Notes under the pieces: generated by a model | The model's input: only the letters and a program-made list of their open reading frames with translations | Database searches by the model: none | What the model was told of the DNA's origin: nothing | Shown here: positions 4,956 to 14,739 of the stretch, in pieces | Position numbering within the stretch: the first letter of the stretch is position 1 | How the letters are laid out: each line of letters opens with the position of its first letter | Translations under genes and position numbers: made by a program | Virus record (IMG/VR): IMGVR_UViG_3300000301_000076 | Origin: a virus | Lineage: Duplodnaviria > Heunggongvirae > Uroviricota > Caudoviricetes | Strand: one strand, 5' to 3' | DNA length: 22,417 nucleotides

Positions 4956-5704
4956 TTCATGTGCAGCTTGGCGGCCCTATGGCCAAACATTTTGGCCGCC
5001 ACTGGCATCTAAAGGTGCGCAATACAAAACAGGCTCTGGATTTAATTGAGGCCAACAAGCCAGGGTTTAAAGCATGGATGAAGCGCAACATCAAAACCTA
5101 TGACAGATACCACATCCAGATCACCAATAANNNNNNNNNNNNNNNNNNNNNNNNNNNNNNNNNNNNNNNNNNNNNNNNNNNNNNNNNNNNNNNNNNNNNN
5201 NNNNNNNNNNNNNNNNNNNNNNNNNNNNNNNNNNNNNNNNNNNNNNNNNNNNNNNNNNNNNNNNNNNNNNNNNNNNNNNNNNNNNNNNNNNNNNNNNNNN
5301 NNNNNNNNNNNNNNNNNNNNNNNNNNNNNNNNNNNNNNNNCAGACGGTAGTAGGGGCCGCTTTGTTGGTTGTATCGGCGGTAATGATGCCTGCTTTAGCA
5401 CCTCTCGGTTTGTCACTAATGATGGGCGGCATATCACAAATAATATCGCCGCAAGCCACTAACGAAAGTGTGAGACAGGCAGATAACTCGAACTCTTATT
5501 NNNNNNNNNNNNNNNNNNNNNNNNNNNNNNNNNNNNNNNNNNNNNNNNNNNNNNNNNNNNNNNNNNNNNNNNNNNNNNNNNNNNNNNNNNNNCCCTCAAA
5601 ATACAGAAAACCAGGGCAACCCAGTACAACTTATCTATGGCGAGGAAATTCTGGTTGGCTCACAGGTTGTGAGTTCTTCAATCACGATTGACCAGCTAAT
5701 GTAA
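4943..5704 (+). CDS. I: Tail assembly protein I homologue (interrupted by N-runs 5131-5340 and 5501-5592)
   Basis: GTG start at 4943 with GGGAG 7 nt upstream, overlapping the K stop. The hydrophobic Gly/Ala-rich central segment resembles lambda gpI. After the last N-run the frame ending TAA 5702-5704 reads PVQLIYGEEILVGSQVVSSSITIDQLM, which matches the lambda I C-terminus (LPVLYGEMRVGSRVVSQEIS), so I prefer it to the ORF-track frame ending at 5691. Confidence 0.75.
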
Positions 5705-10556: not shown

Positions 10557-13171
10557 ATGTGGTACAGGGAAGGTACAATAAATCTCACTAAAGGAAATAA
10601 AACTGTAGTGGGAACAGGCACAGCCTGGGGAGTGACGGCGAACGGCGTCCTTCCAGGTATGATATTGATTGGCCCCGATAATAAGTTATATGAAATAAAA
10701 TCAATCGAGAGTGACACTTCGTTAACTCTTGTTGAAGCCTACGGTGGTAGCACCCAAACAAATGTCCCGTGCAGAATAATTACGACCTATGAAGGTGATT
10801 TAACCCAATTTAGTGCTCGTTTTACTGCGCTTATGTCTCGCATGTCAGCCNNNNNNNNNNNNNNNNNNNNNNNNNNNNNNNNNNNNNNNNNNNNNNNNNN
10901 NNNNNNNNNNNNNNNNNNNNNNNNNNNNNNNNNNNNNNNNNNTCAAAAATGATGCGTAGTTGGTTGACTGCCGTGGATGAAATAACAATTGAGCGTGAAG
11001 ATGGCACGGAATTAACCGTAAAATCCCTTACGCAGATCGTTAATGAGCACAATGAGAACCTAGAATGGTATAAAGAAAATACTCCCATAATTAACACCGC
11101 TGCACAAAAAGCTAAAGAGGCGGCAGCGAGCGCAACAGCGGCCAAAAAATCAGAAACTAACTCAAAAGCGAGTGAGACAGCTTCAAAGACTAGCGAAACT
11201 AATGCGAAAAATAGCGAGGTAGCTGCAAAATCGAGTCAGAGTGCTGCCGCAAACTCCGCTACCGCAGCAAAAAACAGCCAGGATGCAGCAGCCGAAAGCG
11301 AGAGTGCTGCAGCTGGTTCTGCGACTTCAGCAGCTGGATCAGCAACTGCTGCGGCTAACAGCCAGAAAGCCGCGAAGACGAGCGAAACTAACGCAAAGTC
11401 CAGCCAGACGGCAGCGAAGACCAGCGAAACAAATGCCAAAGCCAGCGAAACTGCGGCGAAAAACAGTCAGGATGCAGCAGCCCAAAGCGAGAGTGCCGCA
11501 GCTGGTTCTGCAAGTGCGGCGGCTTCTTCTGCCTCTGCATCAGCCAACAGTCAAAAAGCTGCAAAAACCAGTGAAACCAACGCAAAGGCGAGCGAGACTG
11601 AGGCGGCTAACTCAGCGAAAGCATCGGCAGCAAGCCAGACGGCTGCAAAAGCAAGTGAAGACGCAGCCAGAGAGTATGCAAGCCAGGCTGCGGAGCCGTA
11701 TAAACAAGTTTTGCAGCCGCTTCCCGATGTGTGGATACCGTTTAACGATTCACTGGATATGATTACGGGCTTTTCGCCGTCATATAAAAAGATTGTTATT
11801 GGTGATGATGAAATAACGATGCCTGGCGATAAGGTTGTAAAGTTTAAACGCGCATCAACTGCCACATATATCAATAAATCAGGCGTATTTAGTGTTGCTA
11901 AAATTGATGAGCCACGATTTGAAAAAGAAGGTTTATTGATTGAAGGACAGCGCACTAACTATTTTGTTAAATCCAATATCCCCGCTGAATGGACGAGTAC
12001 CAGCAATATCGATAAAACTAATAATGGTGTTGATGAATTTGGTTTTTCATATGCCAAAATGCGAACAAAAGATAATATGACAGGACAATCATCTGCACTT
12101 AGTCTGCATACATGCAGTGCATCCCGGGGGATTGATGTTAGTGGCGATAATAAGTATTGCACTGTTTCATGCAGGGTTAAAGCTCCTGATGGTCTTCGTT
12201 GTCGTTTGCGTTTTGAAAAATACGATGGGTCGGTTTATACATTTTTAGGAGATGCTTATTTAACTTTCGGAACTCTGATAATAGAAAAAACTGGCGGAGC
12301 AGCCAATAGAATAGCAGCTACTGCAACTAAAGATCCGGTTACAGGGTGGATTTTCTATGAGGCAACTATAGAAGCTGTTGAAGGTGAAACCTTAATTGGC
12401 GCAATGATTCAGTATGCGCCGAAAAAAGGTGGTGTAACTGAAGCGGGAGATTATATTTACCTTGCAACACCACAATTTGAAAACGGCGGATGTGCTTCAT
12501 CTTTTGTTATTACGACAACTGTACCCGCAACCCGCTCCAGTGATATGGTGACGATCCCAACTGAAAATAATATCTATAATAGACCGCTTACGTGCCTGGT
12601 CGAGGTTAATAGAAATTGGGGCGATATTCCTCCTAATGTAGCACCGCGTATTTTTGATTTTTCTGGTGTGCCACCTATTGAGTCAATTACATACGCTTTT
12701 AACACAACTGAGAAATATTACGGNNNNNNNNNNNNNNNNNNNNNNNNNNNNNNNNNNNNNNNNNNNNNNNNNNNNNNNNNNNNNNNNNNNNNNNNNNNNN
12801 NNNNNNNNNNNNNNNNNNNNNNNNNNNNCGTCGACAAGTACTTACGTTTCTAGTGTGTTTGCTGGTCGAACTGATGTTCGAAAATTCATTGGTGGTTTTA
12901 ATATTTATTCTGATGGTACTAAACGAGTAGTTTCTAACGGTGAGGCTACTAAAACCATGAAAACGGAGTGGACGGGCGTAAAAACACGGACCTTTATTCG
13001 AATTGGAGGTCAAGCCACATCGGGAACTCGTCATCTATTCGGCCATTNNNNNNNNNNNNNNNNNNNNNNNNNNNNNNNNNNNNNNNNNNNNNNNNNNNNN
13101 NNNNNNNNNNNNNNNNNNNNNNNNNNNNNNNNNNNNNNNNNNNNNNNNNNNNNNNNGGCATAAAGAATTAA
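10557..13171 (+). CDS. Side tail fibre protein (receptor-binding fibre); 3' end uncertain (13171 or 13203 depending on the frame after N-run 13048-13156)
   Basis: ATG 10557 with GGAG upstream. Long Ala/Ser/Thr/Lys/Glu/Asn low-complexity segment with repeated KTSETNAK and NSQDAAA-SESAAAGSA motifs, as in the lambda Stf collar region, followed by a roughly 400-aa globular distal domain. The segments between N-runs are open in only one frame each. Confidence 0.7.
11270..11650 (+). repeat. Two near-identical direct repeats of about 190 nt inside the fibre collar region
   Basis: aaaaacagccaggatgcagcagccgaaagcgagagtgctgcagctggttctgc at about 11271 recurs as aaaaacagtcaggatgcagcagcccaaagcgagagtgccgcagctggttctgc at about 11460; the protein repeats AAKNSQDAAA(E/Q)SESAAAGSA...ANSQKAAKTSETNAK. 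Confidence 0.75.
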
Positions 13172-13199
13172 CTGATGCGCAAATGGGGGAGAGTATTAA

Positions 13200-13481
13200 A
13201 TGAAAGATTTAACGCTCAAATTTGCAGACAGGGCCGACTTTTCGGCCTTTATGGAGAGTATTGGCTATTATGATGACGAGTCGATGCAGGGTGATATTCT
13301 TATTGACGTGATAGGTAACGTGTACAAAGAAACCGGAGAACTGACTGAAGATGGCGAACCGGTATGTGTTAAGGAGGACGGATATTTTGTAAACGTGCGC
13401 ATCATTAATGATGCAAAAAAATCGTCAATATTCGATAAATACGCGATTGTTGTTGAGCATCAACTTCGTGGCTGGATGTGA
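13200..13481 (+). CDS. Hypothetical protein, 93 aa (possible fibre assembly factor by position only)
   Basis: ATG 13200 preceded by GGGGGAG; acidic soluble protein; lies between the fibre gene and the chaperone-domain gene. No family recognised. Confidence 0.45.
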   Translation: MKDLTLKFADRADFSAFMESIGYYDDESMQGDILIDVIGNVYKETGELTEDGEPVCVKEDGYFVNVRIINDAKKSSIFDKYAIVVEHQLRGWM

Positions 13482-13490
13482 GGGAGACAA

Positions 13491-14364
13491 ATGGCTACAT
13501 CGACAGTAATTCCAGGAGACATCACCACGTTAAAGGGAGATGTCAGTAAAGCCAAGGAAGATATTTCCTCAATTAACGGAAAAGTATCAACGCTTCAGAC
13601 TGATATGACCAGTGCAAAGCAGGATATCAGCACCAGATACACAAAAACTGAAGTTGATAATANNNNNNNNNNNNNNNNNNNNNNNNNNNNNNNNNNNNNN
13701 NNNNNNNNNNNNNNNNNNNNNNNNNNNNNNNNNNNNNNNNNNNNNNNNNNNNNNNNNNNAAAGTGGAAGTGAACGATCTGGAAAGTGGTCGTTATGGTGG
13801 AGATTTTTACCCGCTGACTGGTCGTGAAGCGTTTTATTTGTGGGGATTGGGCACGACTACAGCGGCGGCAAACCTTTATCTTAATCCTGACCCCGCAATT
13901 TCGTCTGTACTGCGGTCCACATCGTCTATCCGCTATAAACATTCAGTAGAGACGATAGATTCGGAGCACGCCGATCTCATTTTCAAGATGCGCCCTGTGT
14001 GGTACAGGTCGCAATGCGAAAATGACAGGCGCGATTGGGGATTCTATGGATTGATTGCCGAGGAAGTAGGAGAAATTGCCCCTCAGTTTGTTCACTGGCG
14101 AGCAGCTAACGAGAATNNNNNNNNNNNNNNNNNNNNNNNNNNNNNNNNNNNNNNNNNNNNNNNNNNNNNNNNNNNNNNNNNNNNNNNNNNNNNNNNNNNN
14201 NNNNNNNNNNNNNNNTTTCCAGCAATGGCCTTGTTGCCGAAGGTGTAATGTACGAACGTCTGGTTGTTCCACTGATTCACCATATCCAGAAACTGACTGA
14301 AAGAGTTGATGAACTTGAGTCAGAATTAAAGTTGTTATCAACTTCCCGAAGCGATATCGGATAA
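13491..14364 (+). CDS. Short fibre-like protein with N-terminal coiled coil and C-terminal intramolecular-chaperone (peptidase S74-like) domain; N-runs 13663-13759 and 14117-14215
   Basis: ATG 13491 with GAGGGAG upstream. The N-terminus has heptad-like repeats (TLKGDVSKAKEDISSINGKVSTLQTDMTSAKQDIS). The C-terminal part has the hallmarks I recall from endosialidase and T5 pb1 chaperone domains: a Ser-rich site (RSTSSIRYK), WGFYGLIAEEVGEIAPQFV, and a terminal Y-x-x-L-V-x-x-L-I-x-x-I-Q-K-L-x-x-R-V-x-E-L-E helix. Stop at 14362-14364. Confidence 0.6.
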
Positions 14365-14375
14365 AGGAGGAGTAA

Positions 14376-14739
14376 TGGATATAACACCTTTCCTTCATGC
14401 ACTTTGTGCTGTGGCTGCGCAGGTACTGGTTGGGNNNNNNNNNNNNNNNNNNNNNNNNNNNNNNNNNNNNNNNNNNNNNNNNNNNNNNNNNNNNNNNNNN
14501 NNNNNNNNNNNNNNNNNNNNNNNGGAAACTGGGCTTACGGGGCGATAGCCGGTTGTACGTTCTTCATTGCTCGTGAACATACCCAGGCAGAATATCGCTG
14601 GATTGAAATGTTCGGGCATGGCAAGCGAATGAATATGCCGTGGTGGGGCGGTTTTGATCCGCGCGCGTGGGATGTAGCAAGTCTGATGGATTTTGCGATT
14701 CCACTTTTAGCGTGCACATTATTATATATTTTTATTTAA
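14376..14739 (+). CDS. Small hydrophobic membrane protein, about 120 aa (N-run 14435-14523)
   Basis: ATG 14376 preceded by AGGAGG. Hydrophobic N-terminus (MDITPFLHALCAVAAQVLVG) and hydrophobic C-terminus (FAIPLLACTLLYIFI). Function unknown. Confidence 0.4.

Follow-up and report, generated by a model that had tools for sequence, protein, structure and literature searches.

The 22,417-nt stretch of the IMG/VR record IMGVR_UViG_3300000301_000076 (Caudoviricetes), here called the window, encodes at positions 13491-14364 a protein of about 234 amino acid residues that ends in a Peptidase_S74 intramolecular chaperone (IMC) domain. On balance we favour, if with some reserve, the reading that this target protein is a minimal self-maturing tail-fibre subunit, which docks most probably on the neck of the side tail fibre (Stf) encoded upstream. 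The target gene is a real, separate phage gene, and the IMC domain is genuine by profile, catalytic pair and fold. We read the product as a fibre that attaches by a conserved end and carries its own chaperone on an exchangeable distal end because the N-terminus is shared between otherwise different alleles while the S74-bearing distal part varies. The same reading follows from the homology of the distal module to real fibre ends, from the selection on the mature part and from the independence of the allele from the neighbouring fibre. A conserved attachment end joined to a variable distal end is the usual layout of a fibre.

A short gene ending in an S74 chaperone domain

The profile PF13884 (Peptidase_S74) of Pfam matched the readable fragment 13760-14116 with 27.9 bits (E 2.9e-6; curated cut-off 22 bits) over positions 13922-14092, and it matched a full-length relative with 27.3 bits over residues 116-172. 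The S74-like chaperone domain that the initial annotation had proposed from the letters of the DNA is borne out by this profile search and by an IMC-like predicted fold. The Ser/Lys dyad that it had placed around RSTSSIRYK is also confirmed: in 28 homologues with 29-97% identity, S116 and K121 are invariant and R113 is nearly invariant. In the context ...VLRST/SSIRYK, the predicted scissile bond lies between T115 and S116. A Thr-Ser bond with a Lys at i+5 has the same spacing as T1263/S1264...K1269 in T5 pb1, in which the mutation S1264A stops autoproteolysis (PMC4690869). The predicted cleavage products are a mature part of 115 residues (12.4 kDa) and a chaperone of 119 residues (13.7 kDa), instead of the cleaved product of about 15 kDa expected earlier.

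A monomer model was made by AlphaFold2 (AF2) from the sequence of P0001, with the 28 homologues in the alignment; P0001, the representative of a database cluster of 2928 member sequences, has 234 residues and is 97% identical to the target. The predicted local distance difference test score (pLDDT) of the model is 80-96 across residues 116-234, and a long C-terminal helix, encoded from ~14250, occupies residues 198-232. Solved IMC domains have a mixed alpha/beta part and end in a long coiled-coil helix. The best fold match of the model in the PDB (Foldseek) was the MyRF ICA domain (7dc3, E 2.5e-5, probability 1.0), and further matches included the endosialidase K1F chaperone (3gw6) and the GA-1 neck appendage chaperone (3gud). 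Over the solved IMC domains, the matches ranged from E 2.5e-5 to 0.1 with probabilities of 0.8-1.0. Among the predicted viral structures of BFVD, there were 129 matches at E<=1e-3, and nearly all of those listed are S74/IMC or fibre proteins. The best PDB match at the sequence level was the C-terminus of LtfA of phage DT57C (8hqz_d, E 7.4e-7). A weak similarity to PDB sequences of T-cell receptor alpha chains (E 0.02-0.4), over NPDPA...LR.S.SS, was put down to chance.

The mature part begins with an anchor motif of ~25 residues, MATSTVIPxDIxxLKxDVS. These first ~25 residues show 48-88% identity over the seven gene cassettes described below, an otherwise unrelated allele included. A heptad pattern follows at residues 8-50, where a hydrophobic residue (I, L, M, V or A) fills 11 of the 12 a/d positions, and the AF2 model places a helix at residues 10-47. 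The coiled-coil segment is closed by the fibre-repeat motif YTKTEVD. Between this motif and the cleavage site lie ~50 conserved residues, with N99 invariant and T94 nearly invariant in the 28 homologues, and tip residues 62-115 correspond by homology to the stretch with which the mature part ends in long S74-terminated fibres. The initial annotation had described about 150 residues of coiled coil and linker; the coiled coil is indeed strong, but the part before the cleavage site measures 115 residues, and ~50 conserved residues stand in place of the linker. The coiled coil gave weak matches to the needle coiled coil of P22 gp26 and also to tail-needle and 'minor head protein' families. A Pfam scan found no match to PF08400, the N-terminal attachment domain of lambda Stf, in the target. 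Scans of Pfam, NCBIfam and PHROG found no assembly-chaperone family of the Tfa, Mu gpU or Caudo_TAP type in the target or in the 93-residue protein encoded before it.

The gene starts at ATG 13491 with GGGAG upstream, and its TAA stop (14362-14364) lies inside the coordinates given. It is interrupted by two runs of N, at 13663-13759 (97 nt) and 14117-14215 (99 nt), and a clean translation of its three readable segments requires frames 0, 2 and 1, respectively. In the lambdoid phage PhiR49_1, the closest unmasked relative (93-97% nucleotide identity over the readable pieces), the two N-runs stand for 11 and 16 nt. Because the segments fall in three frames and the relative has 11 and 16 nt in place of the runs, the N-runs are not length-faithful; a straight reading through them was rejected for the same reasons, and the protein therefore has ~234 residues, not 291. 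The orthologue in PhiR49_1 is a separate gene of 705 nt (234 residues) and also occurs in the phage-plasmid described below and in RefSeq chromosomes. Throughout the unmasked relatives, with 92-97% nucleotide identity, the gene has 705 nt and the protein has 234 residues and 26.1 kDa. The initial annotation had rightly given the protein its own gene and warned that the N-runs made its length uncertain. It had also considered that the open reading frame (ORF) might be the C-terminus of a much longer fibre gene, which is not the case here; in other prophages, the module does sit at the end of long Stf proteins.

A copy of the target gene with at least 80% coverage was found in 740 of the 5426 complete E. 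coli genomes (about one in seven), and all copies listed bear the RefSeq name 'tail fiber domain-containing protein'. About 47 phage records carry a full-length copy. In a further ~240 E. coli genomes, coverage of the 234-residue gene stays below 80%; three that were sampled match solely its first 44 nt, and one that was inspected carries a longer allele. A HMMER scan of 1.84 billion representatives returned 3506 proteins at E<=1e-3. In the best 150 of these, whose sizes are 69-1284 residues, the match lies nearly always at the C-terminal end, the exceptions being a few short fragments. The closest non-orthologous matches listed are the C-terminal ends of fibres of 539-1243 residues, to which residues 45-234 are 57-61% identical. 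Two of these fibres, P0065 (735 residues) and P0066 (958 residues), have a PF08400 N-terminus, fibre repeats and a C-terminal S74 domain (PF13884), and P0072 has a P2-type tail-collar N-terminus. Since the homologous segments are the ends of long fibres, two of them with PF08400, the tip and the IMC together represent a genuine distal fibre end. The existing names for the family (54-100% identity), 'chaperone of endosialidase' and, in BASEL phages Bas05 and Bas06, 'putative lateral tail fiber chaperone', are automatic or tentative. A literature search for virion proteomics, functional tests and accessions of the target protein found no study testing it.

The three-gene cassette and its neighbourhood

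The target is the third gene of a cassette in which a fibre gene is followed by a gene for a protein of ~92 residues and then by the gene for a protein made up of the N-terminal anchor, a variable part and an S74 domain. We compared seven cassettes from six siphophage lineages: PhiR49_1 (lambdoid), PhiR46_1 (N15-like), p108_MLI108-3 (an SSU5-like phage-plasmid colinear with the window), PeterMerian (Bas05) and KarlJaspers (Bas06), both T1-like, HMD-P4 (T5-like, with the cassette at the pb1 locus after the collar protein gene) and JenP2 (9g-like). Over these cassettes, the N-terminus of the third protein reads M-[AV]-T-x-T-x-IP-x-DI-x-x-LK, and the three genes overlap or lie 2-12 nt apart.

Behind the anchor, the third gene occurs in two allele classes, of 221-234 and 333-348 residues, which are 15-20% identical outside the first ~25 residues. 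Each class has its own S74 domain, and the 346-residue allele scores 52 bits. The long class has a central domain of ~190 residues and a stronger S74 domain than the 234-residue class. Just these two classes were met behind the anchor in a tblastn search of phages and in one E. coli locus; a database search with the N-terminal 57 residues for other types of cargo matched only 26 short fragments. Within the family of the target, identity between temperate and virulent phages is 54-58%.

The third protein and the distal domain of Stf vary separately. When the third proteins are compared from residue 26 to the end, PhiR49_1 and the SSU5-like element share 98% identity in the third protein and 49% in the Stf distal domain, whereas the SSU5-like element and HMD-P4 share 68% in the Stf distal domain and 20% in the third protein, which belongs to different classes. 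KarlJaspers and JenP2 share 53% and 16%, respectively. Judged by these comparisons, the third-gene allele is uncoupled from the Stf distal domain over the seven cassettes. Between close relatives, the ratio of nonsynonymous to synonymous substitution rates (dN/dS) is 0.09-0.16 for the whole target, 0.06-0.14 for the mature part and 0.17-0.21 for the chaperone. The mature part is constrained at least as much as the chaperone, and the gene is under purifying selection.

The coordinates of these features are collected in Table 1. The stf product consists of an Ala-rich coiled-coil shaft and a distal globular domain with a GTA_spike_fiber-like part. Its orthologue in PhiR49_1 matches NF048003 with 54 bits at residues 448-648 and PF08400 at the N-terminus. 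Family scans that included the PhiR49_1 Stf found neither an S74 domain nor a Tfa gene for the fibre itself within the cassette. An 81-residue segment of Stf, the neck, has 89-99% column identity in the seven cassettes, compared with 41-59% in the distal domain, and this pattern makes the neck a candidate docking site for the target.

The target had been placed downstream of the side-fibre gene; it is downstream, but not directly, as the 93-residue gene intervenes. The ATG of this gene overlaps the stf stop (ATGA), and the ATG of the target lies 9 nt past its own stop. The 93-residue protein is 41-95% identical over the seven cassettes, and 23 residues are invariant over the lambdoid, T1-like and T5-like versions. 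Identity is 86-95% in the three temperate elements and 49-66% in the four virulent phages, and the protein follows neither of the two variable modules, the Stf distal domain and the third protein. It matched no family of Pfam or NCBIfam, and its profile had no match among the PDB sequences. Its AF2 model, of moderate quality (pLDDT 70.5) and with a small alpha/beta fold, gave no significant PDB fold match (best E 0.97). In six of the eight cassettes inspected (window 13479-13493 and L001-L007), the 93-residue ORF and the target share a frame and are separated by one stop and a 9-nt spacer. A read-through fusion was dismissed because the stops between them are TGA or efficient TAA and because in KarlJaspers the spacer is 2 nt and the target lies in a different frame. 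The shared frame seems to result incidentally from the conserved spacing of the ribosome-binding site rather than from programmed read-through. The gene after the target, for a 97-residue hydrophobic protein, was considered as a part of the system and rejected, as neither of the T1-like cassettes examined contains it and lambda-type phages possess it in the absence of the cassette. The gene is probably a membrane moron separate from the cassette and may serve in exclusion.

Table 1. Location of the target gene, its parts and its neighbours (positions in the window unless a locus is named)
Feature	Position	Strand	Basis or remark
Side tail fibre gene stf	10949..13203	+	Start uncertain; N-runs 12724-12828 and 13048-13156 inside
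Stf neck, 81 residues, LQPLPDVWIPF...LLIEGQR, candidate docking site	11711..11953	+	Column identity over 7 cassettes
93-residue gene (phrog_1361) between stf and target	13200..13481	+	Constant cassette member
Target gene, probable short fibre protein with C-terminal S74 IMC	13491..14364	+	~234 residues, N-runs discounted
N-terminal anchor motif and heptad coiled coil, residues 1-57	13491..13662	+	Alignment of 7 cassettes, heptad count, AF2 helix
Conserved pre-cleavage tip (...GTTTAAANLYLNPDPAISSVLRST), residues 62-115, last residue Thr115	13760..13921	+	Homologue alignment
Predicted autocleavage/catalytic motif S116-S-I-R-Y-K121	13922..13939	+	TCG 13922-13924, AAA 13937-13939
IMC domain, residues 116-234	13922..14361	+	Pfam, AF2 model, fold matches; broken by N-run 14117-14215
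97-residue hydrophobic protein gene (phrog_1443)	14375-14739		Starts 10 nt past target
Long-class third gene (333-348 residues)	L002 4335-5375; L006 6001-7002; L007 5001-6047; L008 4001-5041		

Positions 1008-22417 of the window are colinear with p108_MLI108-3 (L005), a 108-kb E. coli plasmid, with 94-100% nucleotide identity. This plasmid carries tape measure, tail, J-like and fibre genes followed by a GNAT/DUF1778 toxin-antitoxin pair, and it also carries a MipZ/ParA-like ATPase, a DnaB-like helicase and a primase. We read p108_MLI108-3 and the colinear window as an SSU5-like phage-plasmid and not as a lambdoid prophage. The distal half of stf (window 11923-13047) matches the lambdoid PhiR49_1 at 94.6-99% and has no match of at least 150 nt in the otherwise colinear p108_MLI108-3; stf therefore contains an internal mosaic joint. 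The window has 25 N-runs (for example, 2699-2784, 5131-5340, 13663-13759, 14117-14215 and 14435-14523). Each of those checked across the window is far longer than the stretch of p108_MLI108-3 that it replaces. All 25 are over-long in comparison with near-identical relatives (for example, 86 N for ~10 nt) and shift the frame, so that neither a length nor a frame carries over from one side of a run to the other.

A proposed branch on the side fibre, weighed against other explanations

In the mechanism that we propose, three chains would assemble via the C-terminal S74 chaperone, which would template the tip (approximately residues 62-115) and the N-terminal coiled coil. Lys121 would next activate Ser116 for cleavage of the T115-S116 bond, which would free the 13.7-kDa chaperone and leave behind a trimer of the 12.4-kDa mature part. 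This stub would be a component of the virion, docked by its conserved N-terminal ~25 residues. The dock would most probably be the invariant neck of Stf, with or without the ~92-residue protein as an adaptor or assembly factor, and the outcome would be a branched side fibre with two distal ends, the second of them exchangeable. That the protein trimerises, is cleaved, enters the virion, docks at this site and perhaps binds a receptor is what we infer from sequence and its comparison. Lateral fibres that branch or consist of two or more proteins have been documented for T5-like phages and mentioned for small siphoviruses (PMC4728585, PMC10713586, PMC8594841).

Several points weigh against this interpretation. 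Residues 59-111 have a pLDDT below 50 in the monomer model of P0001, and such low values in the tip would be expected of a segment that folds solely as a trimer. The mature part is very small, with ~50 tip residues per chain, and a receptor-binding role of the 234-residue allele is doubtful. A recombination joint or a structural constraint could also explain why the Stf neck is so conserved, and the argument from independent assortment is based on seven cassettes. The constant pairing with one fibre type fits a dedicated assembly factor too, and 'putative lateral tail fiber chaperone' is the name that the BASEL annotators chose.

The initial annotation had offered a short fibre or whisker, a decoration protein and a chaperone acting in trans without ranking them; the N-terminal anchor, the homology to fibre ends, selection and assortment favour the short fibre, and a chaperone acting in trans appears weakened. 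In that explanation, which we consider unlikely, the S74 module, alone or with the 93-residue protein, trimerises the distal domain of the neighbouring fibre and stays outside the virion, and the N-terminal coiled coil merely keeps the chaperone trimeric. It agrees with the position of the gene, always directly after this fibre type and its ~92-residue partner, with the lack of an S74 domain or a Tfa gene for the fibre itself in the cassette, with the tiny size of the mature part and with the annotators' guess. However, the allele class is uncoupled from the very Stf domain that would have to be folded, and the cleavage pair and the pre-cleavage tip, which would be needless in trans, are conserved under purifying selection. 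The N-terminal ~25 residues are kept over otherwise unrelated alleles, as an attachment end would be. Moreover, the IMC in the cited solved structures acts on its own chain (PMC4690869), and the distal domain of Stf is GTA-spike-fibre-like, unlike the domains that precede the IMC in those structures. Somewhat less likely still is the specific form of the idea in which the S74 domain, trimerised by the coiled coil and assisted by the 93-residue protein, acts in trans to template the chaperone-less distal domain of Stf, as an intermolecular version of an intramolecular chaperone.

An independent short fibre, whisker or decoration on the tail tip, collar or head, and not on the side fibre, shares the arguments for a structural protein with the favoured explanation and draws on the weak coiled-coil matches to tail-needle and 'minor head protein' families. 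Those matches cover generic coiled coil only, and the cassette moves as a unit among six lineages with differing tails and heads while the neck, the ~92-residue protein and the N-terminal anchor are conserved together; a docking partner inside the cassette is therefore indicated, and we regard a location elsewhere on the virion as improbable. We give very little credence to the idea that the gene is a defunct leftover of a former stf with an S74 end, stranded when a new distal domain entered ahead of it, even though residues 45-234 resemble the ends of long Stf proteins and the stf in the window is mosaic. The reading frame is intact and is preceded by a ribosome-binding site of its own, the gene is full-length in the 740 E. 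coli genomes and about 47 phage records mentioned above, it is conserved between temperate and virulent phages, its dN/dS is low, and its catalytic residues are invariant. Least credible of all is an artefact of masking, in which the ORF would either form the last part of a longer fibre gene or be translated together with the 93-residue ORF by read-through. The N-runs do conceal sequence, and the two ORFs do share a frame in most cassettes, but the unmasked relatives have the same separate 705-nt gene, the stop of the upstream gene lies in readable sequence, and the nature of the stops and the KarlJaspers spacer speak against read-through.

Under the favoured explanation of a short fibre docked on the Stf neck, the cassette as a whole may be a widely mobile branched side-fibre system composed of a conserved neck, a ~92-residue adaptor and an exchangeable IMC-capped branch, a wider proposal that we advance tentatively, as plausible rather than probable. 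If lambdoid, SSU5-, N15-, T1-, T5- and 9g-like coliphages do carry such a second exchangeable distal end, it would be an overlooked host-range determinant, and the neck, the ~92-residue protein and the N-terminal anchor would offer a ready docking system for the engineering of receptor-binding proteins. The 115-residue mature part would rank among the smallest natural substrates of an S74 chaperone and would be a convenient model for trimer folding and self-cleavage.

Comparison with other IMC-terminated fibre proteins

The target shares with T5 pb1 a C-terminal S74 domain, a Thr-Ser cleavage bond with Lys at +5 and a C-terminal helix (PMC4690869). In T5 pb1, the chaperone is removed once the trimer has folded, and structures with and without the IMC are available (PMC4690869). 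However, pb1 has 1396 residues, with a bullet-shaped receptor-binding domain of ~290 residues before the cleavage site (PMC4690869), whereas the mature part of the target has 115 residues with a tip of ~50 residues, and its gene is separate from that of the long fibre. With the chaperones of endosialidase K1F/NF (3gw6), GA-1 (3gud) and MyRF (7dc3), the target has in common the fold of residues 116-234 and the family PF13884. The passengers of those IMCs are large tailspikes, appendages or a eukaryotic transcription factor, in contrast to the target, which has no enzymatic or beta-helical passenger. In the lambdoid Stf proteins P0065 and P0066, the same tip and S74 module is present in cis as the distal end of one long polypeptide, but the target is a separate protein of 234 residues with its own anchor.

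By analogy, the target most resembles in function LtfB of DT57C. In the T5-like phages DT57C and DT571/2, LtfB is the branch of a branched lateral tail fibre; it is likewise a second, shorter S74-terminated protein encoded beside the main lateral fibre, and its attachment to the main fibre was inferred genetically and not seen (PMC4728585, PMC10713586). A gene arrangement of this LtfB-like kind, beside the main lateral fibre and with its own S74 end, was met in all seven cassettes and in both allele classes. LtfA and LtfB of DT57C both have S74 domains, whereas here the main fibre has none, and the target is much smaller than LtfB. An intervening gene of ~92 residues was not met in the searched parts of the DT57C literature, the locus itself not having been inspected. 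The target is thus a common and already catalogued representative of the fibre proteins that end in an IMC, and it does not amount to a new type of system. What sets it apart is chiefly how small it is and that it sits in a mobile cassette of three genes.

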